Source of the DNA: Escherichia phage YX22
Direction: 5' to 3' (one strand)
Length of the DNA: 64,000 nucleotides
Sequence record: OR776998
Part shown: positions 3,941 through 60,568 of the stretch, piece by piece
How positions within the stretch are numbered: the stretch's first letter is position 1
Layout of the letters: each line of letters opens with the position of its first letter
Program-made: the position numbers and the translations under genes
Notes under the pieces: model-generated
Database searches by the model: none
What the model was told of the DNA's origin: nothing
What the model saw: the letters and a program-made list of their open reading frames with translations, nothing else

Positions 3941-3952
3941 TATAAATATCCC
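3941..3952 (+). promoter_or_regulatory. Late-promoter-like element TATAAATATCCC on plus strand
   Basis: Exact T4 late core TATAAATA followed by CCC, about 32 nt upstream of the plus-strand ATG at 3984 (RBS AGAGGAA). Confidence 0.5.
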
Positions 3953-20858: not shown

Positions 20859-20973
20859 GGTGTAGTCTTCCTGTTTCAGTTCAAATGTGCGCCCCGTTTG
20901 CCAGGGCGCTTCGTTTAAGTGAGGTCAATAATACGTTGAAAAGAGTTATTGAAGAACGAAGTAAAGGGAATCT

Positions 20974-23645: not shown

Positions 23646-24068
23646 CTATTTAGCCTTGCGCGGTTTCGCTTTGGCGTTCAGCTCAGTGCGTCTCATCTTC
23701 TCGCGTATCTCGGCCAGGACTTCCTTCGGCAAGAAACGGACGTACTCCGATGCCTTCTCCATGCTGATGTAGAAGTACTCTGAGAGTAACTTCACGTCAG
23801 GATCAATCGGACCTTTCTTAGACCATTTGTCGTAGCGTTTCCGAGCCGGAATGGTGTAAAAGGCATATGACCATTGCATCCATGGAGTGATAGCATGTAG
23901 CTTATTCATCTGTTGCGCAGCCACTAGAGTGTCTTTGCTCTGAGCTAAACCACGCCGCGTCATAAACGGGTCGAATCCTTTCAACACTTCTGGGTCATCA
24001 GACCGCAAAAGGTTTTCTTTGCTGCTGTTCAGAGCAGCCAGGTAATCGAACAATCCAAGGGCGGCCAT
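23646..24068 (-). CDS. 62: Clamp-loader small subunit gp62
   Basis: Internal ATG at 24068 (MAALGLFDY...); PARKRYDKWSKK matches T4 gp62 PRGKRYGKWAK; sits between 44 and regA. Confidence 0.75.
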   Translation of the reverse strand: MAALGLFDYLAALNSSKENLLRSDDPEVLKGFDPFMTRRGLAQSKDTLVAAQQMNKLHAITPWMQWSYAFYTIPARKRYDKWSKKGPIDPDVKLLSEYFYISMEKASEYVRFLPKEVLAEIREKMRRTELNAKAKPRKAK

Positions 24069-25799: not shown

Positions 25800-26468
25800 T
25801 TACTCAATCTGTGCGCCGACGAAGTAATTGATCGTCGCGTCGGATGATTGGAAGTTCACCATCTGTAGATCAGCACATGCACGCAGAGTGTAGTTGCCTT
25901 CGATCATTTTCAGGTTGGCAACATCCAGCGGCATTACGAAGTCCGGCAGCGCGGTTTCGCCCAGCTCAACAGTGTAGTTGTTGGAGTTGTCCAGGGTAGT
26001 GGTGGTTGCAACCAGGCGTGTTTTGCCACCCTGAGCAACCAGGCGCACAGTCTTGTGTCCGAGGGTAGAACAGGCGCGGGTCAGTTCTTTCATCTTCTCT
26101 GGAGTGATGATCGCTTCAAAGTCGACAGACGGCAGCTCAATGGTGTCAGCCGGAACAACAGTGAGTTCTTTAGCAGAACGCCAGAATTGCAGCTGAGAAC
26201 TTTCGCCCTTCAACAGGATGTAGTCCTGATGGAATTCGGCTTTGGCACCTTTGAAGGAAGGTAGGCGCTGGATGGCCAGAAGTTTGGTCAGGTCCAGAAT
26301 CGGGAACTCAAACGGGAAGTCTTCTTCGATCTGCGCCACGGCGATCACAGTAGAAGAATCATTAATACTGCGCAGCATCTTGCCCGGTGTCAGAACGATA
26401 GATGGGTTGATGGTCTCAAAGTTGGCCAGCAACTGAAGTGTACGTTCGGAGAGAGTGATCTCTTGCAT
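25800..26468 (-). CDS. 45: Sliding clamp gp45
   Basis: 222 aa; begins MQEITLSERTLQLLANFETINPSIVL, parallel to T4 gp45 (MKLSKDTTALLKNFATINSGIML); length and position agree. Confidence 0.9.
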   Translation of the reverse strand: MQEITLSERTLQLLANFETINPSIVLTPGKMLRSINDSSTVIAVAQIEEDFPFEFPILDLTKLLAIQRLPSFKGAKAEFHQDYILLKGESSQLQFWRSAKELTVVPADTIELPSVDFEAIITPEKMKELTRACSTLGHKTVRLVAQGGKTRLVATTTTLDNSNNYTVELGETALPDFVMPLDVANLKMIEGNYTLRACADLQMVNFQSSDATINYFVGAQIE

Positions 26469-28725: not shown

Positions 28726-28738
28726 ATGGGGTATTTAG
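28726..28738 (-). promoter_or_regulatory. Late-promoter-like element CACTAAATACCCCAT (minus strand)
   Basis: Variant of the T4 late core; about 25 nt upstream of the uvsW start (T4 uvsW is late-expressed). Confidence 0.5.
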
Positions 28739-29979: not shown

Positions 29980-30492
29980 TTATACCGCATTTCGCGGATT
30001 AGAATCAATCGCCTTCCCACCAGATAGTGGAACCAGCTGTTGGAACTTGAAGGTCACTGTCGTCACCAGCTGAGGTACAGCTGCGTCTACGTCCACCAGT
30101 ACGTTGTCCAAAGCAGTCGGGCGGGCTTCCTCCAGCACGAGAGTGAGGCCAATCGGTCGGTTGAGGTTATCCAGCAATTCAATGGTAATGTCCTTGCTGA
30201 CAGGCAAATCCTTGCCGACGTTGCTGGTAATCCATTGGTGGATCTGTAACCATGATTTCCAGTCCTCGTCTATAACGAAAGTAAATACGACGGGATCATA
30301 GGTTAAACGCTCTGAAGGTATAGAAACCAACACGTCACCAGGAGACGGACCATCGATGCCTTCGGAGTACACCCCTGGTATACTGAAGTCGTGGATGTTA
30401 CGGGTTAGGAGTACAAGGTCTCCGATAGTCAGACGCCACTTATCGGACGCCGCGAAATTAGGGTTTTCGTTCTTAAATTGTACGTTGGACAT
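29980..30492 (-). CDS. Hypothetical protein, possibly structural; start uncertain (alternative ATG at 30765)
   Basis: Internal ATG at 30492 (MSNVQFKNENPNFAASDKW...) with AAAGGTG 7 nt upstream; the reading frame stays open to 30795, so a longer product of up to 261 aa is possible. Confidence 0.45.
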   Translation of the reverse strand: MSNVQFKNENPNFAASDKWRLTIGDLVLLTRNIHDFSIPGVYSEGIDGPSPGDVLVSIPSERLTYDPVVFTFVIDEDWKSWLQIHQWITSNVGKDLPVSKDITIELLDNLNRPIGLTLVLEEARPTALDNVLVDVDAAVPQLVTTVTFKFQQLVPLSGGKAIDSNPRNAV

Positions 30493-30763
30493 AATAGCAC
30501 CTTTGCTGTGGAGATATTTTGTGACCCTGATGCGCGGGATCAGTAGATTGTTGTTGGCATGCTCGATGCTCTTGTTTACGAGCTGTCGCATCTTTGTCAC
30601 GCCAATAATTTCTGTTTCCGAACTCTGGAACCCAGAAGTGCGCACTGTACCTGTGACGTTGTCGGCCAGCGTTCCCACTTGTAACAAGGGTATGCTGGAC
30701 ATCATCGTGCAAGAGTTCCAGCCCTTCCAGAAGCTCGTACCTTTAGGTTGCTTTGATGAGAAC

Positions 30764-31171
30764 ATGAGCACCCTCAAGCCATACTGGAAGACCACAATTC
30801 CTCTCCTGCGGCATGGCGATGAAGGGAAGATTCCATACCTATCAGCAAGTATTTATTACTCTCAGAATAACAGCATCATTATCACTTTTAATCCATCATT
30901 CCATGCCAAGCTGAAGCAACACATGGTTGGGCGACTGGATACAACATCAGATATAATCGTGACGTTCAAGATCATGAATGACTCAGATAAACCAGTACGA
31001 ATCGCAACTCAGGGTGTGTTCGTTAACAACGACGCGGTTGGAAATGGGATGAGTATCTTTGAAGTTAACCCAGGGGGAACGATCTTGATCAGACTGAGTA
31101 ATGTGGGTGTGAACTCCCTGCTGTTGGATGGCATCGAACCAGTGGGAGTTCTTCCGGCGCGGGAGCACTGA
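30764..31171 (+). CDS. Hypothetical protein (plus strand), 135 aa
   Basis: ATG at 30764-30766 (MSTLKPYWKTTIPLL...); the upstream part of the track ORF is antisense to the preceding gene; convergent with the 31172-31900 gene. Confidence 0.45.
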   Translation: MSTLKPYWKTTIPLLRHGDEGKIPYLSASIYYSQNNSIIITFNPSFHAKLKQHMVGRLDTTSDIIVTFKIMNDSDKPVRIATQGVFVNNDAVGNGMSIFEVNPGGTILIRLSNVGVNSLLLDGIEPVGVLPAREH

Positions 31172-31900
31172 TTACTTCAGCGCGTTCTTCAGATTATCGG
31201 AACCAATGCTGTTGATGACACCTCCGGCGCAGATATCTTTCGCCCACTCTGATATCACGTTGGCAAAAGAGAAGTTAAGACACTTACCAACCATGTCTTG
31301 GATATGGGCTAACTCTGCTGCAATACCGTTCGTGATGTCTTGAGCAATAGAGGCTACTGATGCGACAGCAGTGTCGATGGCTTGAGTAACTTCAGCAGCC
31401 AGTGCCCGAATAGCATCAAGACCAGCACTGACACCCTGAGCTACCAACTCAGCCAGCTCATTCATCTTGTTTGTGATAGTTGTGAGAACACTTTGCATGG
31501 TGTTGATCCACTGTTTGCCGAGGTTCTGAATAACCCCAAATGCATTATTGATCAGATCACAGTTGTTCGGTTCTCGACCTATAGACTTCAGGGCGGACTT
31601 ATACGACACAGATGTACCGATGCGGGAATATGCCTCGTTCACTGACTGGTCGCCATAGTTGTTCAAAGTAGTGATGCTGTTGTTGGCTGAGTTGAACATT
31701 GCTGTAGATTCGTTGAGTTTGGCTGTAGTCAACCCACCTGCCGTCAGCGCTTCCTGAATCTGCGCATTTCCGGTGTTAGCCAGTGACGCTGTAGTCGCCT
31801 TACCACTGGTGATTAACCCCTGTGAGGCGCTGCTGAGGGACGGGAGAGGATTGGTAAAGGCGTTGCCCTGTGATAGGGCGTCATAGATCTGTGCGTTCAT
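31172..31900 (-). CDS. Hypothetical protein, S/T/A/N-rich (possible virion protein), late-expressed
   Basis: Internal ATG at 31900 (MNAQIYDALSQGNAFT...) lies downstream of the late-promoter element at 31921-31934; low-complexity, helix-rich sequence. Confidence 0.5.
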   Translation of the reverse strand: MNAQIYDALSQGNAFTNPLPSLSSASQGLITSGKATTASLANTGNAQIQEALTAGGLTTAKLNESTAMFNSANNSITTLNNYGDQSVNEAYSRIGTSVSYKSALKSIGREPNNCDLINNAFGVIQNLGKQWINTMQSVLTTITNKMNELAELVAQGVSAGLDAIRALAAEVTQAIDTAVASVASIAQDITNGIAAELAHIQDMVGKCLNFSFANVISEWAKDICAGGVINSIGSDNLKNALK

Positions 31901-31920
31901 AAGAAAATACCCCCATGGAT

Positions 31921-31934
31921 GATGGGGGTATTTA
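31921..31934 (-). promoter_or_regulatory. Late-promoter-like element CCCTAAATACCCCCAT within an 11-bp inverted repeat
   Basis: aaataccccca-tggatga-tgggggtattt (31904-31932) read directly; the promoter core is one arm. Confidence 0.5.
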
Positions 31935-32150
31935 GGGATCATGGTAGTTTGTAAACGAAGTTGGACCAGAACTTACGAACAAACTTCTTGACATAAACCA
32001 TTCGGTTGGCGTATTCCCCATCCTTCAGGTCATTGTAGGTCTCAATCCCTACCGCGCCCAAGAAGTACGCCGTGAAGATGTAACAGAACAGATTGATGAC
32101 GACAAACATGATGTATCTCCGCTGTGTATACTCAAATTATTTATGATATG

Positions 32151-32573
32151 TTACAAAAGGCGCTTGGTCTTCGGCTTACCCATTAGAGTGATATCCACAG
32201 GGAGGCCAGCTTTCTTGCAACGGTTGATCATGTCCAGGGTGCCAGTGGACGAACCATCCCACATCGCAATCGGATACACTTCCAGCTTGGTCTGCCTGAC
32301 GAGATCCAATGCCTTGTCTAACATGTCCTGATTGCGTTTGTTGCCCATCCCTTTCCCATACTTTTCATAATAGCTCGGAGGTATTGGCATAGGAGTGATA
32401 TGAACATAATTGATTTCAGCCCAGTCACGGCAAATCTTGTCCACACCAGAGGCTTCACCCTCAATCAGTGTATAGACCTCATGAGGATCGAGGAGTTCGT
32501 CCAGCTTGGCGAATACCTTATCCCGCTCGGTGATTGAGCGGGAACCCGTAATGAGAACGATATACTTCTTCAT
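32151..32573 (-). CDS. SLOG-like (DUF2493-type) Rossmann protein
   Basis: Internal ATG at 32573 (MKKYIVLITGSRSITERD...EGEASGVDKICRDWA): ITGSR and EGxxxGxD pattern typical of SLOG/LOG-like nucleotide-binding proteins; assignment by motif only. Confidence 0.45.
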   Translation of the reverse strand: MKKYIVLITGSRSITERDKVFAKLDELLDPHEVYTLIEGEASGVDKICRDWAEINYVHITPMPIPPSYYEKYGKGMGNKRNQDMLDKALDLVRQTKLEVYPIAMWDGSSTGTLDMINRCKKAGLPVDITLMGKPKTKRLL

Positions 32574-32578
32574 AGAAC

Positions 32579-32923
32579 TCACAGCGCCCCAAGATTGCCG
32601 ATTACGTACAGGGAGCACAGAGGAGTGCCTGACGAACGCGGTTCGATCGTCATCCCGCTCAGGCGGATCAGTTCCAGTAAGCCGTCAGTGGTCTGATACG
32701 CGCGTGTCGAACCGTTCGGTCGATATAGCTCCAGCTCAGTTCGCCCTTCCTTTATTGCATTTCGAATGCGAGTGAACACGCTGTGGTCGCCGAACTTCTG
32801 TTTCAGAAGATCCAGCTTGGTGACCAGGCGGCGCGTTTTGCGTGGCTTGCGCTCACTCGGCTTTTCGAATTTGACGATGTGGGGGATCTCCACGGATTTG
32901 TTCAGTTTGGTGTCTGCTGCCAT
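32579..32923 (-). CDS. Hypothetical basic protein
   Basis: 114 aa, ATG start. Confidence 0.4.
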   Translation of the reverse strand: MAADTKLNKSVEIPHIVKFEKPSERKPRKTRRLVTKLDLLKQKFGDHSVFTRIRNAIKEGRTELELYRPNGSTRAYQTTDGLLELIRLSGMTIEPRSSGTPLCSLYVIGNLGAL

Positions 32924-33076
32924 GGTAAAGTCCTCTATTTGTAGGGGATAGGGTATGCGGTTAACATACCCTGTTCAAAGGTTTAGAACAAATTGCTGCA
33001 ATGTTACTTTGTAACGAGATTGGTGATAGTCCCTTCATTTCAGAGTCAGTGTTGTGCTGCTTATGGAATGAAGTAT

Positions 33077-33105
33077 ACGGGGTTTATTGAAGAATTAAAC
33101 CCCGT
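33077..33105. other. Perfect 10-bp stem hairpin (ACGGGGTTTA/TAAACCCCGT, 9-nt loop)
   Basis: Read directly; followed on the plus strand by an AT-rich tract; intergenic between 32579-32923 and 33126-33362. Confidence 0.5.
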
Positions 33106-33125
33106 TTATTGAATAAATTTAAAAT

Positions 33126-33362
33126 TTATTTGAAGCGATCAGGAAGGGTGTCGTGAACCTCGGCGCTCAGCACCAGAAACTTACCATCCGTCGTTGGGAA
33201 GCAATAGTCTTTCTTGATGTGACGCAAGTGTTCAGCTACAGCTGCCACGCAGTCATCTGTCACGTCGGTCTTCTCACCAACCCACATGCTGGTTTTGGTG
33301 TTCAACCTGCCCTGGAATATAGTACCAGTGAGAGGACTTGCGCCGATCTTTTTGATAATCAT
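33126..33362 (-). CDS. Hypothetical protein
   Basis: 78 aa, ATG start. Confidence 0.4.
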   Translation of the reverse strand: MIIKKIGASPLTGTIFQGRLNTKTSMWVGEKTDVTDDCVAAVAEHLRHIKKDYCFPTTDGKFLVLSAEVHDTLPDRFK

Positions 33363-33370
33363 GTTTAACC

Positions 33371-33814
33371 TCAGTTGTTAATGCGGAACAGTTGTGGATA
33401 ACCACCTGGATGCCCTTCTCCGGTCACGAAGACCTCGTACCGGGCACCTTTAACCAAACCGGGCAAATTGCCTGAGTCGAGTAGATATCGGATTTTATCC
33501 ATAGTGTCCATCCAGGACTTAGCAGGTTCAGCTTCAGCCTCTCCACGATTGAGGACGAGTTCACCTTCAGAATAATACTTCCCGCTGTCCTTCATGTAGT
33601 ACAGCTTGATATGGATATACTGAGGGGATGGAACTTCTGTCCAACCCTCATCGTTCAAATCCTGGCGATCATTGTCGAAACTCTGAAAATCAACATCACC
33701 ACATGCCAGGCGATAATCTTTGAATTTACGGAAACCTTCCACCTTGTCCCCAACGGAGCTACGGAAGAACTGTTTCTTGGCGGGACTAATGAAAATGAAA
33801 TTCTTGTTACACAT
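33371..33814 (-). CDS. Hypothetical protein
   Basis: Internal ATG at 33814 (MCNKNFIFISPAKK...), 147 aa. Confidence 0.4.
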   Translation of the reverse strand: MCNKNFIFISPAKKQFFRSSVGDKVEGFRKFKDYRLACGDVDFQSFDNDRQDLNDEGWTEVPSPQYIHIKLYYMKDSGKYYSEGELVLNRGEAEAEPAKSWMDTMDKIRYLLDSGNLPGLVKGARYEVFVTGEGHPGGYPQLFRINN

Positions 33815-33831
33815 GATATAGATCCTTCCTT

Positions 33832-34056
33832 TCAAAGAATGTTGTGTTCGTCGATATCGGACTGCGTTGCAATCTCCCAGCGGACGACATTTTCGGTTGT
33901 GACGAAATCACGGTTCAGGTGAGAGGCTGGCACATACACCATCGTGTCGACCATGAAGTAACACTGCTCATTGTTACAAGAATCAACGTAAACCTCGATG
34001 AGGCGCACCTCGGCAACACCGGCTTTCGGCTTCTTCACGATCTTTTTCAAGTACAT
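33832..34056 (-). CDS. Hypothetical protein
   Basis: Internal ATG at 34056 (MYLKKIVKKPK...), 74 aa. Confidence 0.35.
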   Translation of the reverse strand: MYLKKIVKKPKAGVAEVRLIEVYVDSCNNEQCYFMVDTMVYVPASHLNRDFVTTENVVRWEIATQSDIDEHNIL

Positions 34057-34080: not shown

Positions 34081-34113
34081 GGGCAATAATACCTCTCACC
34101 CCGTTATTGAAAA
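34081..34113 (-). promoter_or_regulatory. Repeated promoter-like element (copy 1)
   Basis: Minus strand TTCAATAACGGGGTGAGAGGTATTATTGCC; second copy at 34345-34383; each sits just upstream of a small-gene start. Confidence 0.4.
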
Positions 34114-35900: not shown

Positions 35901-35930
35901 GAACAAATAAAAACCCCGCCGAAGCGGGGT
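35901..35930 (-). terminator. Rho-independent terminator after gp23
   Basis: Minus strand: ACCCCGC-ttcg-GCGGGGT followed by TTTTATTTG. Confidence 0.7.
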
Positions 35931-35957
35931 TTGTCAGGGTTAAGGACAACTATTCGA

Positions 35958-37280
35958 TTAGAAAAGTCCTTTAATTAACCCTTTGCGGAAATACACGTTG
36001 GTGTCCTTGGCGATACCATCCGCAGTCACATAGACCTGTGGATCCTGGTTCGCTGGGATCTGAACGAATGGGTTAGCACAAATCCCGTAGCGGGTCTTGA
36101 ACGCCATACGTGGTGCGAAGGTGGTTTCACCCTGGGTGCGGTACATTTCCAGCGGTACATACGGTGCGAAGAAGATACCAGCATCCAGCGCGGTTGCGCC
36201 TTTGTATGCCAGGGTGATGTATTCTGCTACTGCATACGGGTCGATGTAGACACGCATACCGTTAGACAGCACACCAGCGAAGGTCTGGCCAGTCGGATCA
36301 ATCGCCAGCTTGGTGTTTTCCTGCAGCGCCGGAGCATAATCCAGCATGCCGGACATCGCCAGAGCGGATGCTACGTTCGGGGAGCACAGAACACGGTTGC
36401 CTTTACCACGACGGGTGTCAACACCGATGCCGTTCGCTTCGACTTCCAGCATGAAAGTCATGTACTTCCATTTTTCCAGCGCCCAACGACCGGAGATGTC
36501 AGTGGAGATATCTACGATACCGTTGGTGCCGAATTTTTTGAAGCGTACTGCGCTGAAGTTCATGGTGCGGATAAACTCACGGTTCATCTCTGCCTGAATT
36601 TCAGTTACCATCACGTCGGACAGGATGCTGTCAACGTCTTCGCCGTGGATCGCCATCATGTCCTGGCGCAGTTCGTGGCTGTAGTCAGCGTACAGGCCGC
36701 GAGACTTCGCAGTCACGGTTGCTTTCTGAACGGTGATACCAACACGTGCCCATGGGTTGGTGGTGGTGCCCAGCAGTTCAGCGTCGGAGGTTGACATGCC
36801 TTTACCGATGGTGGTGGTAGCAGCGCCGGAACCTTCGATTTCAGTCTGGGAGAAGCCAGATGGGTCGCCAGCCTGTGCAGTATCGTCACCGGAGTAACCG
36901 GAGTTGGCTTCGTTCATGAACAGCTCAGCGCGGGACTGGGCAGTGTTGGAGCCGTCTGCAACGCCCTGGCGAGCACGCAGTGCGAAGATCTGACCGTCAG
37001 GACCAGACAGCGGCTGAACGCCGAAGAAGTCCATCGCGATGTTGACCGGAGCCAGACGTTTGGCCATGTCGATCAGGACTGGCTGCCATTTGCCCACAGA
37101 GGCGTTCACGGAGCCAGGAGCGTCGGATTCGCCCAGGTTTTTGGCGTTCCACTCAGCCTGGTTTTGCAGCAGACGGACGGCAACGTTTTCGGCAGAAAGC
37201 GGCTGGATGCTTTCAGATTCTTTCTGAAGAACTGGCAGCCACTGCTCGCGCATTTGTTCGGTAACAAGTTTCTTAGCCAT
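35958..37280 (-). CDS. 23: Major capsid protein gp23
   Basis: ATG at 37280 (MAKKLVTEQMREQWLPVL...), 440 aa; position downstream of the scaffold and protease genes as in T4; size and composition fit a T4-type capsid protein. Confidence 0.85.
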   Translation of the reverse strand: MAKKLVTEQMREQWLPVLQKESESIQPLSAENVAVRLLQNQAEWNAKNLGESDAPGSVNASVGKWQPVLIDMAKRLAPVNIAMDFFGVQPLSGPDGQIFALRARQGVADGSNTAQSRAELFMNEANSGYSGDDTAQAGDPSGFSQTEIEGSGAATTTIGKGMSTSDAELLGTTTNPWARVGITVQKATVTAKSRGLYADYSHELRQDMMAIHGEDVDSILSDVMVTEIQAEMNREFIRTMNFSAVRFKKFGTNGIVDISTDISGRWALEKWKYMTFMLEVEANGIGVDTRRGKGNRVLCSPNVASALAMSGMLDYAPALQENTKLAIDPTGQTFAGVLSNGMRVYIDPYAVAEYITLAYKGATALDAGIFFAPYVPLEMYRTQGETTFAPRMAFKTRYGICANPFVQIPANQDPQVYVTADGIAKDTNVYFRKGLIKGLF

Positions 37281-37371
37281 GATGGTCATTCCTTACATTG
37301 ATATTCAGTTAAGTTGAAATTACTTAGTAGTTCAAAATCAAGCCCCCTTTCGAGGGCTGTGGCTGCTAAAA

Positions 37372-38223
37372 TTAGCCGTTGATGCCGAAGCGACGATTAT
37401 AGTCGGCCAACTGACGCTTGATAGATTCTTTCAGCTCTTTGTCTGTTTCATCTTCATCGTCATCTTCATCGCCTTCTTTCTTAGGCTTTTTGCCTTCGGC
37501 TTTAACATCTTTGTTGTCGTCATCGCCGTCTTTTCCGCCGACTTTGTCCTGGAAGTCATCGTCATCGTCATCGCCTTCTTTCTTCACGGACTTACCTTCT
37601 ACCAGGTTGCGGAAGGTGTGTACGCGGGAAGCGAATTCGCTTTCGGTGGTGAACTGCACCGCTTCCAGCAGATTGACAACCGTTGCTTTCTTGGTATCGA
37701 CCATACCTTCACAGATACGGGCGATCACAGAGTCACGCAGAGTCGCATTCGCGGCTTCTTTGATTTGACGGTTTTCGCTTTCAGCAGCCGCAGCGCGTTG
37801 TTCTGCTTCGGCCAGGCGGGCAGTCAACGCAGCGATCTGGCCGTTTTCGTCGGTGGCAAAGTTAATACCAGCTTCTTTCAGAACACCAGTCAGGCCAGTC
37901 AGCAGGTTTTCAGCCGCTTCACGTTTGATCTGAGCATCGATTGCAGGAGCGTTCTTGTTAGCCCACTCTTCTACAACAGCATTCAGGAAGCCATCGACTT
38001 TCGTCGCGATTTCCATCAAGTGAGACTCTTTCAGCTGAGCAATCTCAGCCTGATGAGCTTCAACCAGACGCAGGCGCTCAATATTGGCAGCGTTTTCGGT
38101 TTCTTGAATAGCGGTCAGGCGAGCGGCTTCTACTTTAGATTCCAGCAGACCAGACACTTTATCCAAGAAGTCGGTGCTGAGGCCGTTAACGCCCTCAAAC
38201 AGTTTTTGCAATTCAGGTTTCAT
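37372..38223 (-). CDS. 22: Prohead core scaffold protein gp22
   Basis: 283 aa, coiled-coil with a very acidic D/E/K-rich C-terminal stretch (KEGDDDDDDFQDK...); sits between gp21 and gp23. Confidence 0.8.
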   Translation of the reverse strand: MKPELQKLFEGVNGLSTDFLDKVSGLLESKVEAARLTAIQETENAANIERLRLVEAHQAEIAQLKESHLMEIATKVDGFLNAVVEEWANKNAPAIDAQIKREAAENLLTGLTGVLKEAGINFATDENGQIAALTARLAEAEQRAAAAESENRQIKEAANATLRDSVIARICEGMVDTKKATVVNLLEAVQFTTESEFASRVHTFRNLVEGKSVKKEGDDDDDDFQDKVGGKDGDDDNKDVKAEGKKPKKEGDEDDDEDETDKELKESIKRQLADYNRRFGING

Positions 38224-39433: not shown

Positions 39434-39470
39434 GTTCATATCCTCTAAATGTTTTCTATACTTAGTCGAA

Positions 39471-41165: not shown

Positions 41166-41199
41166 GATTAAGTCCTCAACATTTTCTTGTAATTAGTGA

Positions 41200-42498: not shown

Positions 42499-42580
42499 TT
42501 CGATGCTCTCTCAGTAAAATCGTTCCATTTTAACCCGCGAGAGACCATTGAAATGCCCTCCGAAGAGGGCATGGGGTAAA

Positions 42581-44516: not shown

Positions 44517-44526
44517 GATATTTAGT
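44517..44526 (-). promoter_or_regulatory. Late-promoter-like element (GATCACTAAATATC) upstream of gp18
   Basis: CTAAATAT core about 45 nt upstream of the gp18 ATG, between the gp17 stop and the gp18 start. Confidence 0.45.
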
Positions 44527-44528
44527 GA

Positions 44529-46739
44529 TCACCGTCTCAGCCATTCTTCCATAGACATACCAGAGCGTTCATCATAAACCTGAATTCCACCGAACCCTGA
44601 GATGTTCTCCACAGAGTGAGGATCTGGCGTCGACATCATACCCCCAAATGGTAGCATCTGAGATTCTTCCATCGCAGACAACCGTCCTCTCATGTCCACA
44701 GAGATATTTGAATTGGTGAGATCACTAAACCATTCTTGTTTCACCGCCCATGCATACAACACGAGGGGCATTACACAGTCATCATGACAACCATCATCGG
44801 CTTCATACCTTGTTCCAGTCCATACGAATGTACTGAGTTCATCTATCGTGTCCTGGTCATCTATCACCAGCATTTCACGTTCAATCAGGGCTTTCAGGTT
44901 GGCACAGCCGTTTGTGCGCACCTTCTTGTTGGTATTGATACCAGGTTCAGGGCGGCGACCACCGATTCTCTTGCCTGTACCCTTGGTATCTGTTGTGGTG
45001 AAGATGATCTCTGGATATTCAATTTCTTGGTATAGAATTGTGATTACCTGACCACCCACGTCGTTGTTGGTCTCGACTAGCATCGGGCACGTTCCATACT
45101 TCTCACCCATATCGGCGATTGTGTACGCATACATCATTGGAGGTATCGTGTTATTTCGATACTTGGCTGCGATCTTGTGAGGATAGTCTGTGATGTCGAT
45201 AATGGTCAGCACAGAATAATCCCCTTCGACACCCTTGCCTGTATCTGCGATACCCATATAGATGCGCTTAGGATCGTAGTCGTGATAAATCTTGGTGAAC
45301 TCGTTCGGCTCCTGATACAGCTTCGAGGTCATCTTGTCCAGACACTTGGCAGGTATCAGTGATCCCACAGAACCACGGAACTTAATGCCAAATTCTTGAT
45401 CGAAACGTGCATCACCCAGCTTCGCCCTTTGTTTGGATTCCCAGTCTGGATCTTTGGTGTACGTTGGAACACGATACCATGGGACCTCGGTGAGTTTGAA
45501 GTCGTTGTATTGTGGGTGTTCTGGGTTCGCCTTGGTGACGATGTCGTAGAACAACCCGCGCTGACCTTTCGGCGTACTGGTCAGAATACAACGTGAAGTC
45601 TCTGCAGATGCAATCGCCGGGAATGTAGACTCCCAGAATTCAAAGTCGTTTTCAATGAACGCCACTTCGTCCACATACAGGAGCGATACAGATCGACCAC
45701 GGATGGAGTCGGAAGATGTCGCATAGGCGTAGATCTTTGATCCGTTTTCGAACTCTATCAGCGTGGAACCGAACTTCTCACAACCCTGTTGGAGGAAGAA
45801 TGGCAAATCTTGATATGCTTTGCGAATACGATCTAGGATTTCAATCGCCTGCTTCTCTTTGTTCGCCAGTACTGCGATCTCTTTGTCGGAGTGGAACATC
45901 GCATACCAGAGCAGGAACGCTGCCACGACAGTCGTGTTGTGGCTGAGGAAGCCGTTGGTGTAGTAGCGCTGATCACTAGATTTCACCTGTAGGTCATACA
46001 TGTGATGCGTCTCACCAGTCTGCCAAACCTCACGGATTTCTTCTGGACCTTCTGACGTCATGATGTATGACCCAGCATTCAGGTCTTTGGCAAATATCTC
46101 CTTCATTTCCGGAGTGAAGAATATATGTTCGTCGGCCACGTTAATTCGCCGCCCAGTAACAGTCACAATAACGAATTCCGCATATTTCTTCGTCTTATGC
46201 GCTGCGATAACCGGAACCCAGCCACTATCGGATTGCACAAAGTAACGTTTGCCGAAGCGGCTGTCCACGAACTTGTCATGGTTGCCAATGGTATTCAGCG
46301 GCACAGCGTGGTTGACGTCCTCGAAGCGGCTGTGAAGCTCCCCTATGGTCAGGAGCAACTGCTCTTGGCTGAGAGTATCGTAAACTGTGACAAGCGTGTC
46401 ACCTTTTACACATTTCCCAGACTGACGAGCCTGGACGACCGCATTGAATCGATAGTCCTGGAAGTCATGGAACAACTGCTTCTGGTAATCGTGCATGTCA
46501 AAGAGGATGAAGCCTTTATCGATGGTCGTGATCTTGTAGTAGTTGGCGGCGAAGTAATGGGCGTCCATCGCACACTCGACGAACTCCGATTCTTGTTCGT
46601 CGGTTAGCATCAACTCCACACGAGGTGCACGCACAGACGGCTTGCGCATGAACGTTTGGTCCATACGCAGTCTGACGTCTTCTGTCTTAAACCCCGTCTT
46701 GAGCGGGGCGTATTCTACATCACGCTTCTGATACGCCAT
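44529..46739 (-). CDS. 17: Terminase large subunit gp17, interrupted by a mini-intein
   Basis: Track ORF starts at GTG (46748); ATG at 46739 (MAYQKRDV...) with AAGGAAGAAGGTG upstream. Exteins join as ARQSGK|TTVVAAFLLW, matching T4 gp17 Walker A SRQLGKTTVVAIFLAHF; C-terminal nuclease region matches T4 (HDDCVMPLVLY versus HDDLVMSLVIF). Confidence 0.9.
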   Translation of the reverse strand: MAYQKRDVEYAPLKTGFKTEDVRLRMDQTFMRKPSVRAPRVELMLTDEQESEFVECAMDAHYFAANYYKITTIDKGFILFDMHDYQKQLFHDFQDYRFNAVVQARQSGKCVKGDTLVTVYDTLSQEQLLLTIGELHSRFEDVNHAVPLNTIGNHDKFVDSRFGKRYFVQSDSGWVPVIAAHKTKKYAEFVIVTVTGRRINVADEHIFFTPEMKEIFAKDLNAGSYIMTSEGPEEIREVWQTGETHHMYDLQVKSSDQRYYTNGFLSHNTTVVAAFLLWYAMFHSDKEIAVLANKEKQAIEILDRIRKAYQDLPFFLQQGCEKFGSTLIEFENGSKIYAYATSSDSIRGRSVSLLYVDEVAFIENDFEFWESTFPAIASAETSRCILTSTPKGQRGLFYDIVTKANPEHPQYNDFKLTEVPWYRVPTYTKDPDWESKQRAKLGDARFDQEFGIKFRGSVGSLIPAKCLDKMTSKLYQEPNEFTKIYHDYDPKRIYMGIADTGKGVEGDYSVLTIIDITDYPHKIAAKYRNNTIPPMMYAYTIADMGEKYGTCPMLVETNNDVGGQVITILYQEIEYPEIIFTTTDTKGTGKRIGGRRPEPGINTNKKVRTNGCANLKALIEREMLVIDDQDTIDELSTFVWTGTRYEADDGCHDDCVMPLVLYAWAVKQEWFSDLTNSNISVDMRGRLSAMEESQMLPFGGMMSTPDPHSVENISGFGGIQVYDERSGMSMEEWLRR
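45936..46412 (-). mobile_element. Mini-intein (159 aa, Hint domain only) inserted in the terminase Walker A motif
   Basis: Begins with Cys immediately after GK (CVKGDTLV...) and ends with HN before Thr (...GFLSHN|TTVV); block-B-like GRRINVADEHIFF; no endonuclease domain by length. Confidence 0.8.
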
Positions 46740-48778: not shown

Positions 48779-48799
48779 ATCGATACCCTCAATTTTGAA

Positions 48800-48810
48800 G
48801 GTATTTAGTC
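48800..48810 (-). promoter_or_regulatory. Late-promoter-like element (CGACTAAATACC) upstream of gp14
   Basis: CTAAATAC core about 25 nt upstream of the gp14 ATG. Confidence 0.45.
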
Positions 48811-49050: not shown

Positions 49051-49077
49051 AAGAAGGGCGGGTAATCCCGCCTTTCC

Positions 49078-55278: not shown

Positions 55279-55311
55279 TTTGATGCTCCATCGATAGGTG
55301 CCATTATAGAG

Positions 55312-55321
55312 ATATTTAGTA
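55312..55321 (-). promoter_or_regulatory. Late-promoter-like element (TATACTAAATATC) upstream of the giant structural gene
   Basis: CTAAATAT core about 35 nt upstream of the ATG at 55278. Confidence 0.45.
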
Positions 55322-55384
55322 TACAACCAACCGAGGAATAGAAAGAAATAAGCCCGAAGGGGCTTTGATTATCTTTCTGTGGTT

Positions 55385-55516: not shown

Positions 55517-55539
55517 AAAGTATTATTAATAAGTAAAAA

Positions 55540-55569
55540 CAACCCCATAGAAGTGGGGTTGTTTTTAAG
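55540..55569. terminator. Bidirectional terminator hairpin
   Basis: CAACCCCA-tagaag-TGGGGTTG followed by TTTTT on plus, with a T-run on minus as well; sits between the small plus ORF and the end of the 55580-57493 tailspike gene. Confidence 0.65.
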
Positions 55570-55579
55570 TGATTATTAC

Positions 55580-57493
55580 TTACATAACAACTGCGGCAGA
55601 TATGTATCCTGAATCTTGATACGATCCAGAAAGGTCAAAAACTTCTAAGTTAAAAGAGTCAGGGGATGTACTTACGGCATTAATTACTAATTTCCCTCCG
55701 CTAGTGGTATTGCCAACACTGCATAAAACAGCATAAGCAGAGGAGGGCATAGTATTAGATAGGTTGACGGTATATTTACCGGTCCCGGTTTTAGTTACAG
55801 TTGCTCCATCCGCATACACTAACGACCCCGAAATTCCATTAAAATTGATCATTGCCCGTGTACATGCACTCGACCTTTTTGCGACGGTAGACCCAATAAA
55901 TGCGTATTCTTGGGCCTTGTTAATATAAATCTTATTAACAGAAGTGTCAGGTACTTGTAAGACGTTGTCTATAACAACATTACAGGCTGTTGCTCCAGAT
56001 ACGGTAGAGCATCTATCTATCTCATAATTGTCGATATTAATAGCCCTTACAAAACCTATACCCCCAAATGCTGACCAGTTTTGTTTAACAAGAACACCGG
56101 AAATACCGGACAGGAAAATAAGATCGCCTGTCGTATCTTTGCTAAACGTGTTGTTGGTTATTGAAACAGAAGAAGAACGCGGTGAGTGACTATCATCTGC
56201 AACATATACCCTGGCTAAAGAAGAAGCAGTATTCTCTTCAAAGTAGTTACCATCTACCAGTAACTGCTGTGCACCCCCGGCGACAACACCTACGTCATAG
56301 CCCGTGTTTGCTTCAAATAGAGAGTCTCTGACTATGAAATTTCGTACACTACTTGCAGTACCTGAGTCTCCGATAAGAACACCGTTAACACCATCAAAGA
56401 AAGTACAATTATCAACTTTAACTACGTTGATATCTACCTTTGACGTTTTTACACCATTTGCACATTTAGCGAAATAGCATGAAGTTAGTTCAGCTACTCC
56501 GGAAAAATAGTCTGGGCTATCGTAATGTAAATAGACCCCATATCGAGCGTTTCTGACAACGCAATCTTGAAGTTTTAAATACCAAGCCCCACCGAAATCA
56601 AAGCCATCAGATGATGAATCCTGGATATCCAGAAAAAGTCCAGAAATCTTAGCTCCTATCGCACCACCTTGAACCCGAATGGCGGGTGACGCTAACCCGG
56701 TAAACTTAATTACTGAACCTGTTGTTTGGTCATTAACATGTCCAAAACTATTACCAACAATACATAGACTATCAGTGGCAGTTATGATTAAAGTAGAGCT
56801 TATAAGATAAATACCATCCGGTATGTATAAACTCTTTTTCGAATCTATTGCTGCCTGAAACGCGGCGGTATCATCGGTCACACCGTCGCCAACAGCCCCG
56901 AAGTCCTTGACTGACACCAGGTCTTTATTTTTATCATATAGTGTTCGCTTAATGGAGTTGGCCAGAGGTGACTTAAATCCGACCAGACCAGCGCCATCAT
57001 CAGATGCAAGATTGATTCTCAAGGCTGCATCACCAACACTAACCCATTTGCCTAACCCAGTACCACCAGCACTTTCAGGAGTTGAGCCAGAAGAAACGGT
57101 TTTAGGTAACTCGCCATCCCAGCGATACTTACCTGTTGTATGGGTAAGCAATTCATTTTTAACATTAAGTGTAGCACCAGTGTCAAACGACCCAGGCAAT
57201 GTAACGTATTCTTCACGGGATACGGCTAATTCCCCAAGATCTATGGAACCAGCTGAATGTACAAGTACAGCATTAGTACCAAGACTTACAGCAGTAGTTC
57301 CTGCCGGAAGTACAGGTAATGAGTAAGCTCGTTGAGTAGTCTTATCGTAAATGACCTTGTAACCACCTAAGTCTACACCTACAGCAAAGTAGACTACTTC
57401 ATTCTGCTTAACACCAAACTTACGGGCAATGGCTTGCTTATTGGTAAGAATACCAGTGGAGCCTTTACCACCTTGGGAGAACATCTCGTTCAT
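55580..57493 (-). CDS. Tailspike protein with parallel beta-helix (pectate-lyase-like) depolymerase domain
   Basis: 637 aa; N-terminal 150 aa conserved with the 60567-63593 protein (anchor module); C-terminal region has repetitive beta-helix coil signatures (NCTFFDGVNGV, GNYFEEN, ITNNTF). Confidence 0.75.
   Translation of the reverse strand: MNEMFSQGGKGSTGILTNKQAIARKFGVKQNEVVYFAVGVDLGGYKVIYDKTTQRAYSLPVLPAGTTAVSLGTNAVLVHSAGSIDLGELAVSREEYVTLPGSFDTGATLNVKNELLTHTTGKYRWDGELPKTVSSGSTPESAGGTGLGKWVSVGDAALRINLASDDGAGLVGFKSPLANSIKRTLYDKNKDLVSVKDFGAVGDGVTDDTAAFQAAIDSKKSLYIPDGIYLISSTLIITATDSLCIVGNSFGHVNDQTTGSVIKFTGLASPAIRVQGGAIGAKISGLFLDIQDSSSDGFDFGGAWYLKLQDCVVRNARYGVYLHYDSPDYFSGVAELTSCYFAKCANGVKTSKVDINVVKVDNCTFFDGVNGVLIGDSGTASSVRNFIVRDSLFEANTGYDVGVVAGGAQQLLVDGNYFEENTASSLARVYVADDSHSPRSSSVSITNNTFSKDTTGDLIFLSGISGVLVKQNWSAFGGIGFVRAINIDNYEIDRCSTVSGATACNVVIDNVLQVPDTSVNKIYINKAQEYAFIGSTVAKRSSACTRAMINFNGISGSLVYADGATVTKTGTGKYTVNLSNTMPSSAYAVLCSVGNTTSGGKLVINAVSTSPDSFNLEVFDLSGSYQDSGYISAAVVM
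57040..57493 (-). repeat. Diverged direct repeat: tailspike N-terminal anchor module (copy A)
   Basis: Nucleotide and protein similarity to 63125-63593 over about 450 nt, for example shared ELAVSREEYVTLPGSFDTGATLNVKNELLTH. Confidence 0.7.
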
Positions 57494-57550: not shown

Positions 57551-60229
57551 TTAGCTTAATGGTTTTACTTCCCATCGCTTGTCATAGTAATGTGCAAAAC
57601 CACAGTAGGATACAGACAGATGAACGATTGCATTTACTAGGCTTGCTGTAGGTAATGCAATTCTGACAAATGTTTTACCGTCACGTACCAGTTTAGTTAC
57701 TGTTACCCCGGAAAGAGATTTATCACCAGCAATCATATTAGACCAGACTGCACCAGAGGCTACATTTTCCTGTGTGCTACCGGATAGCCCAAACAGAATA
57801 CTGCCCCCTGATTCAGTACCAGCCAAACCATTTTTGTTAACTGGAATGATATCTGCACGCCCAGCAACGAAGCAACCATCTGGGATTTTAGTCTCTTCCC
57901 CTACAGCACAGAGAAATATATCCAAAGCCCTGTTCCATGGAACCAGTACAGTAGCTTCCTTGTGGTCAACACTCCGGAAGAACGAACTGCTATTAGAGTG
58001 AATTGCCGACAAAGTAGTGCCTGTATATGAGTTACGACCCTGTACAATATCTTCTCCATATACCCTGCCCCGGTAAAGGTTACCACGGTTATATGTAGAT
58101 ATTGTGTAGGAACCATCGCTAACTTTTAAAAATTCAAAATTACTATTTAATGTAACACTACGCCCAATATACTGGTTACTTGGAGAAGTGGTATTCTCCA
58201 TCAATTTGATAGCATAGTCAGAGTTAACGTAACCACTGTCAAAGATAATCCTACCAGCCTGGTACTCATTAGTAGGTAACTCAATAAAATGAGTTACACC
58301 AGTATTCATTTTAGACTGAATCCAACAAGAAACATCTCTGAATACGATTGTTGTTTGTGCAGCAGGGGAAGCTAACTGTGAGAAGTCTAATGCCACTGGC
58401 CCATTTATCCCTTCAATACCGAAGCCAGAGAATGAGAGGCTACGAATATCTCCATAAAATTTATGAGGTAAAATGCAACCATCTGCTGCAATGTTGCTAG
58501 TAGCAACATACATGACAGGCAATCCATTACTGACTGGCTCATATGTAGTACGGTTAATGGCAGCTCCCCATAAAAAACCAATGTCACAATGGTGTGCCCA
58601 AATAGATGACATATCCGTACTAGTGCTTCCATTGATACCAAAACCATAGGTACAGTCATATGCATACAAATTGGTCATAACACTAACAAAGCAAGCCATA
58701 GGCAAAGCGAACTTATAGTGGTAAAAGTCCACATCATGCACATTAAATGTCTTACCGCCACCACCTATGCCATTGCTTAAATCGAATGAACTAATAACAA
58801 GAGGACTACCTACGTAATCAGAATCAGCATTTCGGAAAGAGAGGCGACCAATAGTAATATTGTGTCCCCATCTGGTAGAGATGAATCCACCCTTACCTGA
58901 TGTATAAATAATACTTTGTCTCTGACCAAGACCCGTAATGGATAGAGATCTGCCAGTCCAACGCTGATTGCTAATATCAATCTGTGTATCACCAATATAC
59001 ATTGGTTGGGTAATTTTGATATTCAACCCATTAGCTACAGCATATGAATAGGTTGCTAACAAAGCATCCCCATCATTGTGCACACCAGTCAGGTCAGCAG
59101 CCCCCATACTTGGTGCTTTAGGATACGGACCGCCCTGAATGGTGCTGCCGTCGATATATGGGGCGTCCATCCACGCACCAAACATAGATGGGGTAACTTC
59201 GGTGCTACCACGTAAATCACGTACCCAACGTTTGCCGGATGCAGTAACAATAGTCATACCATTATCATCTGCTGATGTAACAGATGGTTTATATACAAAA
59301 TACCCGCCACCTAAATCACCGGCATTGGTTGCAATCATACCGTCAGTATGGGCTTCTACGTAAATACGTTGTTCAGCATAGGTAGGCTCAATTGTTCGCA
59401 GTACTGCAATATTGGGGCATGTACCAATCAGCTTACTACCATCAGGCTTGCTCAGGTCTTCTCTGAGACTAGCACCAGAATTTGGGACTTCCATCAAATC
59501 TACGGTAATGTTACCTGGACTGTAGGTTAACTGACCATTAGACACAGAACTAATATAGACATTGGTCGGTAATGAAGGCAGGCCATAAATTTTCTGAGCA
59601 GCTGCATCGAAGATAACTTTCTTGTTATCGAGTACTTGAGATGTATCCGTATTAAGAATTACCTCAGAATCTTTTACATTAGCTGAACGAGCGATTTCTT
59701 GAATACTTCGGTCAAACAACGGACTGATATTCGGTTGTTTAACAGACATTTCAGCGACTACCCAAACGCCTGCAGTCAGCGCAGTTTGTAAAGACACTTT
59801 CCCTGTCGTGCTGTCATAGGAATATTCAATTTCTGGTGTTTTGTACTCACCACCGATATAAAGAGATTGGACTCCATAAGATGTGTAATCAGGAGTGAAC
59901 TCGGTTTCACCTCCTATAGCCTGAAACTTATAGATTCGAATCCCGGTTTTATAATCTTCTGGAGACAGAATCTTATCAAACAGACAGAACACAACGTCAC
60001 CTTTGGATAATGCACACCCGAGATTCAACGTATTTCCATCGATTTCAAAGTTGTCTAACGGAACTTGCATACCACCGTTGATTGTGACTATACCCGTGAC
60101 AGGGTAGAAAGGGAGGGAGATAAACTTCTCTCCGCCCGTTGCTGTGTAAGTGTATGGAATCTGGTGCGGAGCTGTTACGACCGCTCCAAAGATGCTCTCG
60201 ACGTTTCTGGTCATTTGAAGATACCCCAT
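57551..60229 (-). CDS. Tailspike/tail fibre protein (892 aa)
   Basis: Long late ORF preceded by a late-promoter element; G/S/T-rich beta-rich sequence typical of receptor-binding proteins; alternative start at 60214 (MTRNV...). Confidence 0.7.
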   Translation of the reverse strand: MGYLQMTRNVESIFGAVVTAPHQIPYTYTATGGEKFISLPFYPVTGIVTINGGMQVPLDNFEIDGNTLNLGCALSKGDVVFCLFDKILSPEDYKTGIRIYKFQAIGGETEFTPDYTSYGVQSLYIGGEYKTPEIEYSYDSTTGKVSLQTALTAGVWVVAEMSVKQPNISPLFDRSIQEIARSANVKDSEVILNTDTSQVLDNKKVIFDAAAQKIYGLPSLPTNVYISSVSNGQLTYSPGNITVDLMEVPNSGASLREDLSKPDGSKLIGTCPNIAVLRTIEPTYAEQRIYVEAHTDGMIATNAGDLGGGYFVYKPSVTSADDNGMTIVTASGKRWVRDLRGSTEVTPSMFGAWMDAPYIDGSTIQGGPYPKAPSMGAADLTGVHNDGDALLATYSYAVANGLNIKITQPMYIGDTQIDISNQRWTGRSLSITGLGQRQSIIYTSGKGGFISTRWGHNITIGRLSFRNADSDYVGSPLVISSFDLSNGIGGGGKTFNVHDVDFYHYKFALPMACFVSVMTNLYAYDCTYGFGINGSTSTDMSSIWAHHCDIGFLWGAAINRTTYEPVSNGLPVMYVATSNIAADGCILPHKFYGDIRSLSFSGFGIEGINGPVALDFSQLASPAAQTTIVFRDVSCWIQSKMNTGVTHFIELPTNEYQAGRIIFDSGYVNSDYAIKLMENTTSPSNQYIGRSVTLNSNFEFLKVSDGSYTISTYNRGNLYRGRVYGEDIVQGRNSYTGTTLSAIHSNSSSFFRSVDHKEATVLVPWNRALDIFLCAVGEETKIPDGCFVAGRADIIPVNKNGLAGTESGGSILFGLSGSTQENVASGAVWSNMIAGDKSLSGVTVTKLVRDGKTFVRIALPTASLVNAIVHLSVSYCGFAHYYDKRWEVKPLS

Positions 60230-60293
60230 AGAGGATTTGCCAATATGGGGTATTTAGTCTGAACTAATAAATTTATGAACAAAGGTATAACAA
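60218..60293. repeat. Repeated promoter cassette (copy 1), about 75 bp
   Basis: Near-identical to 63597-63672: ...ccaatatggggtatttag(t/g)ctgaactaataaatttatgaacaaaggtataacaag; contains the late-promoter core and a 9-bp inverted repeat ATACCCCAT/ATGGGGTAT spanning the tailspike start codon. Confidence 0.8.
60245..60257 (-). promoter_or_regulatory. Late-promoter-like element CAGACTAAATACCCCAT
   Basis: About 20 nt upstream of the tailspike ATG at 60229. Confidence 0.5.
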
Positions 60294-60514: not shown

Positions 60515-60530
60515 AAAGTATTATTAATAA

Positions 60531-60568
60531 GTAAAAACTAACCCCGCCGAAGCGGGGTTTTGTTTATT
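60531..60568. terminator. Bidirectional terminator hairpin (ACCCCGC-cgaa-GCGGGGT)
   Basis: Followed by TTTTGTTTATT on plus and preceded by a T-run on minus; the same stem sequence occurs at 35913-35930. Confidence 0.7.

Follow-up and report, generated by a model that had tools for sequence, protein, structure and literature searches.

Several genes of bacteriophage T4 (e, soc, 49, I-TevI, I-TevII/III, and segB), as well as mobE of Aeromonas phage Aeh1, carry a late promoter within the DNA for the 5′ strand of a hairpin that sequesters the ribosome-binding site. In T4, long early and middle transcripts sequester the Shine-Dalgarno sequence or the AUG, and transcripts from the late promoter are translated. 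Here, we describe four inverted repeats in the window, i.e., the whole 64,000-nucleotide stretch of Escherichia phage YX22 (sequence record OR776998) that was analyzed, each of which overlaps a late promoter of the type CTAAATA(C/T)C in front of a gene encoding a DUF7217 protein, gp14, or one of two tailspikes. They share with the T4 hairpins a promoter located in the 5′-strand DNA and a 3′ strand lying over the Shine-Dalgarno sequence, and we consider it fairly probable that they are T4-style hairpins that occlude the ribosome-binding site and have late promoters embedded in them.

The promoter motif has precedents of its own. The sequence CTAAATAcCcc is quoted as a regulatory motif of Ackermannviridae (‘Viunalikevirus’), with five full-length copies in phage EspM4VN, and for Aeromonas phage Aeh1 a late promoter has been published in which CTAAATA begins at −12. 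In a 2011 paper on phage CBA120, the late promoter of ViI-like phages is described as not yet identified. The accessible mention of the Ackermannviridae motif gives the motif and its positions, and in this motif literature we found no description of a hairpin, of the run of C residues (C-run) as an anti-Shine-Dalgarno sequence, or of the variants CTAAGTA and CTAATTA.

Late promoters in the window

Seven exact matches to CTAAATAYC (Y, C or T) were detected in the window, all on the minus (coding) strand, versus an expectation of 0.44 and a maximum of 2 in shuffled sequences. The motif is therefore commoner than chance, in a comparison that an earlier, sequence-only reading of this DNA had named as capable of refuting it. 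That reading had claimed a variant late-promoter motif upstream of at least eight late genes on the minus strand and a separate box for the lone plus-strand late gene (3984); both were found, the latter as TATAAATATCCC at 3941–3952. Together with the box of gp22 (CTAAATACT) and the plus-strand box, the seven exact matches make up nine boxes in total, as follows.

28730–28738, minus strand, late promoter CTAAATACC of uvsW (ATG 28706; UvsW_N and helicase domains), exact CTAAATAYC match
31927–31935, minus strand, late promoter core CTAAATACC of the DUF7217 gene (site A), exact CTAAATAYC match, predicted +1 near A31923
38251–38258, minus strand, late promoter ACTAAATA(CT) of the gp22 scaffold gene (ATG 38223)
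44517–44525, minus strand, late promoter CTAAATATC of the gp18 tail sheath gene (ATG 44476), exact CTAAATAYC match
48800–48808, minus strand, late promoter CTAAATACC of the gp14 gene (ATG 48778), exact CTAAATAYC match
55311–55319, minus strand, late promoter CTAAATATC of the gene for a 1612-amino-acid VriC-like protein (ATG 55278), exact CTAAATAYC match
60249–60257, minus strand, late promoter CTAAATACC of a tailspike gene (annotated ATG 60214), exact CTAAATAYC match
63625–63633, minus strand, late promoter CTAAATACC of the next tailspike gene (ATG 63593), exact CTAAATAYC match
3941–3952, plus strand, T4-like late promoter TATAAATATCCC of gene 3984–4751 (ATG 3984), no hairpin

All the boxes (9/9) were located 23–42 nucleotides (nt) 5′ of a start codon and on the correct strand. 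The genes behind them were uvsW, the DUF7217 gene, gp22, gp18, gp14, the VriC-like gene, the two tailspike genes, and one gene of unknown function, namely the plus-strand gene 3984–4751, which corresponds to phrog_3833. The gp22 site reads ACTAAATACT and matches TAAATAY but not the YC extension, while the plus-strand site is a perfect T4 late box (TATAAATA). When the nine sites were aligned on TAAATA, information was found only at A-C-TAAATA-Y-C and at an A-rich spot at the predicted +1; no −35 element was present among them, and there was no conservation from −45 to −3.

Because the boxes are strand-specific, lie directly 5′ of structural genes and uvsW, lack a −35 element, and occur in a window that contains a gp55-type gene, we read these (C/T/A)TAAATA(C/T)C boxes as late promoters of the gp55 type, with a single −10-like element at about −12 to −6 in each. 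The late-promoter interpretation of the sequence-only reading is thus borne out by strand bias, gene position, the lone −10-like element, the sigma factor gene, and the published motif. Compared with the motif of Ackermannviridae, the T4-related phage family to which the window also belongs, the window boxes are identical in sequence, with all 11 bases of CTAAATAcCcc matched at four sites (28728–28738, 31925–31935, 60247–60257, and 63623–63633) and CTAAATAYC at the others. The motif is real and its reading correct, yet it is already published. It was reportedly first described in the 2012 paper by Adriaenssens et al. that proposed the genus Viunalikevirus.

The boxes share with the T4 late promoter TATAAATA a lone −10-like element without a −35 element, a position 5′ of virion, lysis, and recombination genes, and the presence of gp55/gp33/gp45 homologues, but differ from it in their first two positions, which are loosened to (A)C, and in a conserved Y-C extension. 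Aeh1 has the same heptamer, with C instead of the A of T4 at −12, and gp55 is diverged from that of T4 in both phages. However, Aeh1 represents another phage lineage, and the −12 base is not fixed in Ackermannviridae, being C in Agtrevirus but either T or A in Kuttervirus at the orthologous site. Among orthologous copies of site A in other Ackermannviridae, TAAATA was preceded by any of C, T, and A, with the full TATAAATA present in some genomes of Kuttervirus.

Inverted repeats embedding the late promoters

Four boxes coincided with RNA folds that were significant when each site was compared with 200 shuffles.

31904–31932, minus strand, site A hairpin (DUF7217 gene), 12 perfect pairs, −16.8 kcal/mol, z = −4.27, 0/200 shuffles
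48783–48804, minus strand, gp14 hairpin (box 48807), −10.2 kcal/mol, z = −4.15, 0/200 shuffles
60221–60253, minus strand, tailspike hairpin (box 60256), −16.3 kcal/mol, z = −4.87, 0/200 shuffles
63597–63630, minus strand, tailspike hairpin (box 63632), −19.6 kcal/mol, z = −4.56, 0/200 shuffles

Site A contains a perfect 12-bp repeat, AAATACCCCCAT / ATGGGGGTATTT, with the loop CATCC; its 5′ arm consists of the promoter and the C-run, and its 3′ arm, composed of a GGGGG Shine-Dalgarno sequence and TATTT, stops 3 nt short of ATG 31900. The gp14 repeat, ACCUUCAA / UUGAGGGU, includes one G·U pair (RNA, AUACCUUCA-AAAU-UGAGGGUAU) and holds a GAGGG Shine-Dalgarno sequence in its 3′ arm. At 60221–60253, the repeat ATACCCCAT / ATGGGGTAT is followed by one extra pair (RNA, AUACCCCAUA...UAUGGGGUAU), and the 3′ arm contains a GGGG Shine-Dalgarno sequence and an in-frame ATG at 60229, while the start annotated in relatives is 60214. 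The hairpin at 63597–63630 (RNA, AAUACCCCAUA...UAUGGGGUAUU) is a near copy of the 60253 repeat and also covers a GGGG Shine-Dalgarno sequence. At all four sites, the 5′ arm begins with base 2, 3, or 4 of TAAATA and continues through the C-run, and the 3′ arm comprises the G-rich Shine-Dalgarno sequence (GGGGG, GGGG, or GAGGG) and TAT(TT), ending 3–6 nt before the ATG. They therefore form, as T4 e, soc, 49, and I-TevI do, a stable helix whose 3′ strand lies over the Shine-Dalgarno sequence and/or the AUG.

The sequence-only reading had listed perfect 9–11-bp inverted repeats at 31904–31932 and 60222–60257. Both repeats are real, the former being 12 rather than 11 bp long, and those at 48783–48804 and 63597–63630 are additions to its list. 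Its placement of the other arm over the start codon region did not hold, as the 3′ arm instead lies over the Shine-Dalgarno sequence, even at the tailspike site, where the ATG at 60229 is in frame and the annotated start is 60214. A 55-nt direct repeat with 98% identity (60240–60294 and 63616–63670) represents a duplicated promoter cassette of the two tailspike genes; it contains the 5′ arm of the hairpin but neither the loops nor the 3′ arms, which are nevertheless similar. An Rfam scan of the entire window yielded no family match.

Predicted late transcripts and proposed ribosome-site occlusion

With CTAAATA at −12 to −6, late RNA is predicted to start at or next to an A, 5–7 nt after TAAATA. 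From this start, which is predicted and not mapped, late RNA would lose 8–10 of the 9–13 pairs at the four window hairpins, and 8–10 of the 9–16 pairs would be gone when all strong hairpins, including those of a relative described below, are considered. On the predicted +1, the late promoter also lies within the DNA for the 5′ strand, as it does in T4 e, soc, 49, and I-TevI.

This geometry bears on the suggestion of the sequence-only reading that the repeat forms a hairpin in the 5′ untranslated region (UTR) of the late mRNA, where it would tune stability or translation. The repeat is indeed located between the promoter box and the ATG region, and 5′ stem-loops can stabilize mRNA. However, the 5′ arm begins inside TAAATA, and, with the box at −12 to −6, the 8–10 pairs mentioned above would be missing from late RNA, in which the Shine-Dalgarno sequence is moreover predicted to be accessible (median unpaired probability, 0.57). 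Since late RNA is predicted to begin within the 5′ arm or where that arm ends, a late 5′ UTR cannot contain the hairpin, which would form only on read-through RNA, and we regard a late 5′ UTR hairpin as very unlikely.

Occlusion of the ribosome-binding site on read-through RNA would operate as follows. Host RNA polymerase, together with the phage late sigma factor (2608–3399), would read the boxes. The (A)AATA of the box and the C-run would act as an anti-Shine-Dalgarno sequence, pairing with the G-rich Shine-Dalgarno sequence and TAT(TT). RNA reading through from upstream promoters would hold both arms, and its ribosome-binding site would be hidden, while RNA from the late promoter would begin within or just past the 5′ arm, lack that arm, and be translated. 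Expression would then be tied to each gene’s own late promoter.

Comparison with related phages

The region 30000–34000 of the window was 96–97% identical to Escherichia phages LHE287, RPN242, A221, and AV101, and 88–89% identical to Shigella phage Ag3 and related Ackermannviridae; by sequence similarity, the window can be assigned to an Agtrevirus-like Ackermannviridae phage. The whole genome of AV101 with its annotation (a 97% identical relative) and 150 kb of Salmonella phage Vi01 were used as references.

Among the 199 annotated genes of AV101, 29 had TAAATA 12–45 nt 5′ of the start, and the other 170 served as controls. Accessibility of the Shine-Dalgarno sequence was taken as its computed unpaired probability in the RNA from −60 to +12, and late RNA was set to start 6 nt after TAAATA. 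On read-through RNA, the median unpaired probability was 0.29 for the 29 genes and 0.50 for the 170 controls (Mann-Whitney p = 9e-6), and it was 0.57 for the 29 genes on predicted late RNA. The gain upon truncation was 0.30, versus 0.05 in equally truncated non-motif genes (p = 2e-6). Strong hairpins were found at approximately 10 of the 29 TAAATA genes, namely those encoding three tailspikes, gp6, gp14, the DUF7217 protein, an endolysin, and a RuvC-like resolvase, and two small genes. In 14 of 14 AV101 hairpins, the stem ended 0–8 nt short of the ATG.

The arms differ from site to site in AV101 and are nevertheless complementary within each site (ATATCCTCGC/GCGAGGATAT, AAATACCTCTG/TGGAGGTATTT, AAATACCCCTA/TAGGGGTATTT, and GTAAATAGCCCATA/TATGGGCTATTTAC). 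The duplex of a 5′ arm with its own 3′ arm averaged −7.7 kcal/mol, compared with −4.5 kcal/mol with the arms of other sites (permutation p = 5e-5). The latter value speaks for C-rich promoter flanks that merely happen to complement G-rich ribosome sites, but a product of chance or composition would account neither for the difference between own and foreign arms nor for the failure of all 200 shuffles to reach the observed energy at each of the four window sites. Such an origin also conflicts with arms that are conserved across genera while the loops drift, and we consider it extremely improbable.

At site A, the arms AAATACCCCCA / TGGGGGTATTT were identical in 17 of 18 loci whose proteins were 60–100% identical, and the remaining locus had lost a single C in the 5′ arm. 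The loop was variable (CATCC, CATAC, TCAAT, or AAAT), the spacer to the ATG was 3–7 nt, and TAAATACCCCC was unchanged in the 18 related loci, while the adjoining coding sequence diverged. The tailspike, gp6, and gp14 hairpins were kept in Vi01 and nine Kuttervirus loci, with that at 63597–63630 kept in 11 loci and the gp14 stem being the same in Vi01. The resolvase gene showed compensation through the gain or loss of a G:C pair (ATAGCCC...GGGCTAT in AV101 and ATACCC...GGGTAT in Vi01), and a G·U pair of the endolysin gene hairpin in AV101 was G-C in Vi01. We conclude that selection acts on the inverted repeats, which are genuine. The resolvase gene is located at 60488–61078 in AV101 and 45039–45650 in Vi01, and the endolysin gene at 71196–71990 and 56259–57053, respectively; the modules of the two genes have energies of −15 to −18 kcal/mol.

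G·U pairs were present in 9 of the 14 AV101 hairpins, and the sense RNA was more stable than the antisense RNA (p = 0.012), which speaks for a structure in RNA and against a palindrome or protein operator in DNA. At the DNA level, the element could be an operator bound by a dimeric regulator, form a cruciform, or work as a late promoter in both directions. Palindromes of the last kind have counterparts in AV101: in the divergent pairs gp4/gp48 and gp2/gp54, the repeat consists of two back-to-back TAAATA boxes, one per gene, and at 3534 and 61078 the 3′ arm is TAAATA on the opposite strand. The 3′ arm complements in the window, however, are AAAATA, AGATAC, TAATAC, and CGATAC rather than TAAATA, and no gene would be served by them; a bidirectional promoter was accordingly rejected for the window sites. 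Arms that differ among sites while remaining complementary are also unlike a single protein-recognition sequence. The binding of a dimeric factor, as proposed in the sequence-only reading, is disfavored by these compensatory differences and by the G·U pairs and the greater stability of the sense RNA, and a role as a DNA palindrome appears quite improbable. Within each of the AV101 pairs gp4/gp48 and gp2/gp54 (36818–37483 and 57325–57379), the approximately 50 nt that separate the two genes are an apparent bidirectional late promoter.

Site A and its surroundings

The gene behind site A and a candidate source of read-through RNA are located as follows.

31172–31900, minus strand, DUF7217 gene, 242 amino acids (Pfam DUF7217, 8.5e-92)
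34086–34111, minus strand, early-type promoter motif TTCAAT-N14-TATTAT, candidate read-through source 2.15 kb 5′ of site A

The AV101 record in GenBank places the start of the DUF7217 gene at the equivalent of ATG 31942, in which case the promoter and hairpin would be translated, but this codon is CTG in most relatives. Judged by its conservation, the true start is ATG 31900, and because the gene starts there, the promoter and hairpin of site A are intergenic.

The motif TTCAAT-N14-TAWWAT (W, A or T) had four matches, all on the minus strand (3560–3585, 20928–20953, 34086–34111, and 42527–42552), versus 0.04 expected, and it agrees with the second published ‘unique regulatory motif’ of Ackermannviridae. 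A consensus terminator scan called no canonical terminator between 34086–34111 and 31935. A predicted early-type motif thus lies 5′ of site A with no terminator between them, while terminators do precede the tailspike promoters (all promoters being predicted). Further, CATAAATAAT was found at 32138–32143 on the minus strand, 28 nt 5′ of the 56-amino-acid gene 31939–32109 that precedes site A; its counterpart in Vi01 is a perfect TATAAATA, and this preceding gene may itself be late.

Terminators

An intrinsic terminator is a serious alternative, especially at 31904–31932: the hairpins could primarily be terminators or 3′-end stabilizers of the upstream unit, with the promoter packed in the 5′ arm and occlusion being incidental, or they could have both roles. 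Site A has an A-tract and the stem CCCCCAU/AUGGGGG followed by UAUUUUCUU, the Kuttervirus site A reads CCCCCA-AAAU-UGGGGG followed by UAUUUUUAUG, and the endolysin sites of AV101 and Vi01 are similar (A-tract, GC stem, and U-rich tail). Moreover, the gene 5′ of site A, with its own TAAATA box, has no other terminator behind it. When judged by a GC stem, a loop of 3–8 nt, and a U-run, site A would fit a terminator on condition that its A-U stem base is taken as the U-tract, whereas the tailspike hairpins depart in both loop size and U-run, enclosing approximately 13 nt between their outer stems and having U-poor tails (UAUCUUCAA and UAUUAUCAUG). The scan called none of the four window hairpins (0/4), and the UAUUU tail is dictated by pairing with AAAUA. 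A terminator would also have no reason always to cover the Shine-Dalgarno sequence and end 0–8 nt from the ATG, yet all 14 AV101 hairpins do so. Finally, the canonical terminators of this genome differ (GC stem, tetraloop, and T-run) and are already present 5′ of the tailspike and VriC promoters. We therefore judge termination or 3′-end stabilization unlikely as the primary role, although it could be an additional one.

Canonical terminators were located at 60540–60559, 55534–55567, 55350–55365, 49057–49072, 35911–35932, and 37341–37358, several of them being bidirectional. Those behind the tailspike, gp13, gp23, and gp22 genes have GC-rich stems, tetraloops such as TTCG or GAAA, and a T-run, unlike the promoter hairpins, and that at 55350–55365 lies just 5′ of the VriC-like promoter (55311–55319). 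In many other intergenic regions of AV101, TTCAATAA boxes adjoin GC-hairpin terminators.

Late transcription genes

Two genes of the window relate to late transcription.

2608–3399, minus strand, gp55-type late sigma factor gene (phrog_234, tblastn, and the annotations of AV101 and Vi01)
25800–26468, minus strand, gp45 sliding clamp gene (labeled sliding clamp at the orthologous position of the AV101 and Vi01 records)

The open reading frame 2608–3399 matched phrog_234, ‘late sigma transcription factor’, in PHROGs (3.2e-52) and, by tblastn, gp55 of T4-like cyanophages (approximately 1e-8), and its orthologue is labeled Gp55 in the AV101 and Vi01 records. A sequence search of the protein against solved structures gave no match at E ≤ 0.01, and what appeared at E ≤ 10 was noise; no Pfam family was matched, and the only NCBIfam match was a sub-threshold one to sigma-70. 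The evidence for homology to gp55 is thus that from PHROGs and tblastn, and the protein is too diverged from the solved structures searched to be matched by sequence. The gp45 protein is a co-activator of T4-type late transcription, and gp33 is annotated in AV101 and Vi01 at a place outside the window. Thus, gp55, gp33, and gp45, the set expected of a phage with gp55-type late promoters, are all encoded, gp33 through the annotation of the relatives.

Probable promoter variants

Boxes with one altered base were found in front of further minus-strand genes.

37321–37328, minus strand, variant ACTAAGTA 5′ of the gp23 major capsid gene, likely a variant late promoter, identical in Vi01
39459–39466, minus strand, one-base variant 5′ of a small gene, identical in Vi01
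41190–41197, minus strand, variant ACTAATTA 5′ of the gp20 portal gene, identical in Vi01

The ACTAAGTA and ACTAATTA variants were confined to the minus strand, and 23647–23652 is a further variant-box position in this series. TAAGTA and TAAATA were exchanged at two orthologous sites, 5′ of regA (window versus AV101) and 5′ of the small gene (AV101 versus Vi01). Because of these exchanges, the variants CTAAGTA and CTAATTA are probably promoters, and the late-promoter family is probably CTAA(A/G/T)TA.

Discussion

We found no earlier description of the Ackermannviridae hairpins, although a device of this kind has long been known from T4. The endolysin and Holliday-junction resolvase genes of AV101 and Vi01 carry the module, matching the functions of T4 e and 49, while the proteins appear, from their annotations, to be of different types from those of T4. 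The other regulated genes (tailspikes, gp14, gp6, and DUF7217) differ from those of T4, and the arrangement is stereotyped, with the arm always beginning within TAAATA, and frequent, being present at approximately 10 of the 29 TAAATA genes. In contrast to the T4 hairpins, the Ackermannviridae module is known from sequence and computed accessibility (0.29 versus 0.57, with a control gain of 0.05).

Several observations weigh against occlusion of the ribosome-binding site. No significant hairpin was found at the other five boxes of the window (RNA fold versus shuffles, z = −0.4 to −1.0), including that of uvsW (28730–28738), with only a weak, interrupted hairpin (z = −0.61), and that of gp22, with a small, non-significant 5-bp hairpin; since five of the nine window promoters lack a significant fold, the hairpin is no general property of the late promoter. 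Occlusion would be less needed at the tailspike genes, as canonical terminators are already present 5′ of their promoters. Because a TAAATA box also precedes the gene upstream of site A, some of the RNA reading through into site A would itself be late. Covariation within sites is weak, with almost no stem variation in the 18 site A loci or the 9–11 tailspike loci, and the evidence for it comes mostly from paralogous sites, two of which (the tailspike cassettes) are duplicates. The C-run after the box naturally complements any purine-rich Shine-Dalgarno sequence, which inflates the baseline pairing. In addition, our search for literature on start sites, transcriptomes, or expression timing of Ackermannviridae and Kuttervirus returned none, and we thus infer the +1 and the read-through RNA; the effect on translation is a prediction as well.

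We further propose, tentatively and with somewhat less than even confidence, that the ‘cCcc’ tail of the published consensus is an anti-Shine-Dalgarno sequence rather than a polymerase contact, and that the promoter-in-hairpin module provides genome-wide insulation at approximately one-third of the late promoters. If so, tailspike, neck, baseplate, endolysin, and resolvase genes would carry a module that keeps the ribosome site hidden unless the RNA originates from the gene’s own late promoter, and that at certain sites doubles as a terminator of transcription coming from upstream.

For annotation, the arrangement offers a sequence rule for late genes and true start codons in Ackermannviridae, as in the case of the DUF7217 gene at 31900. 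Phages of this family are widely engineered, both by tailspike swapping and as reporter phages. Each tailspike gene has its own promoter-hairpin cassette, and we predict that translation would be silenced if the gene were moved without this cassette or if an inserted promoter read into it. More broadly, our results suggest, as predictions, that the device with which T4 silences lysis, resolvase, and structural genes carried on early read-through RNA predates T4 and reaches beyond it, and that its use is more systematic in Ackermannviridae than in T4.

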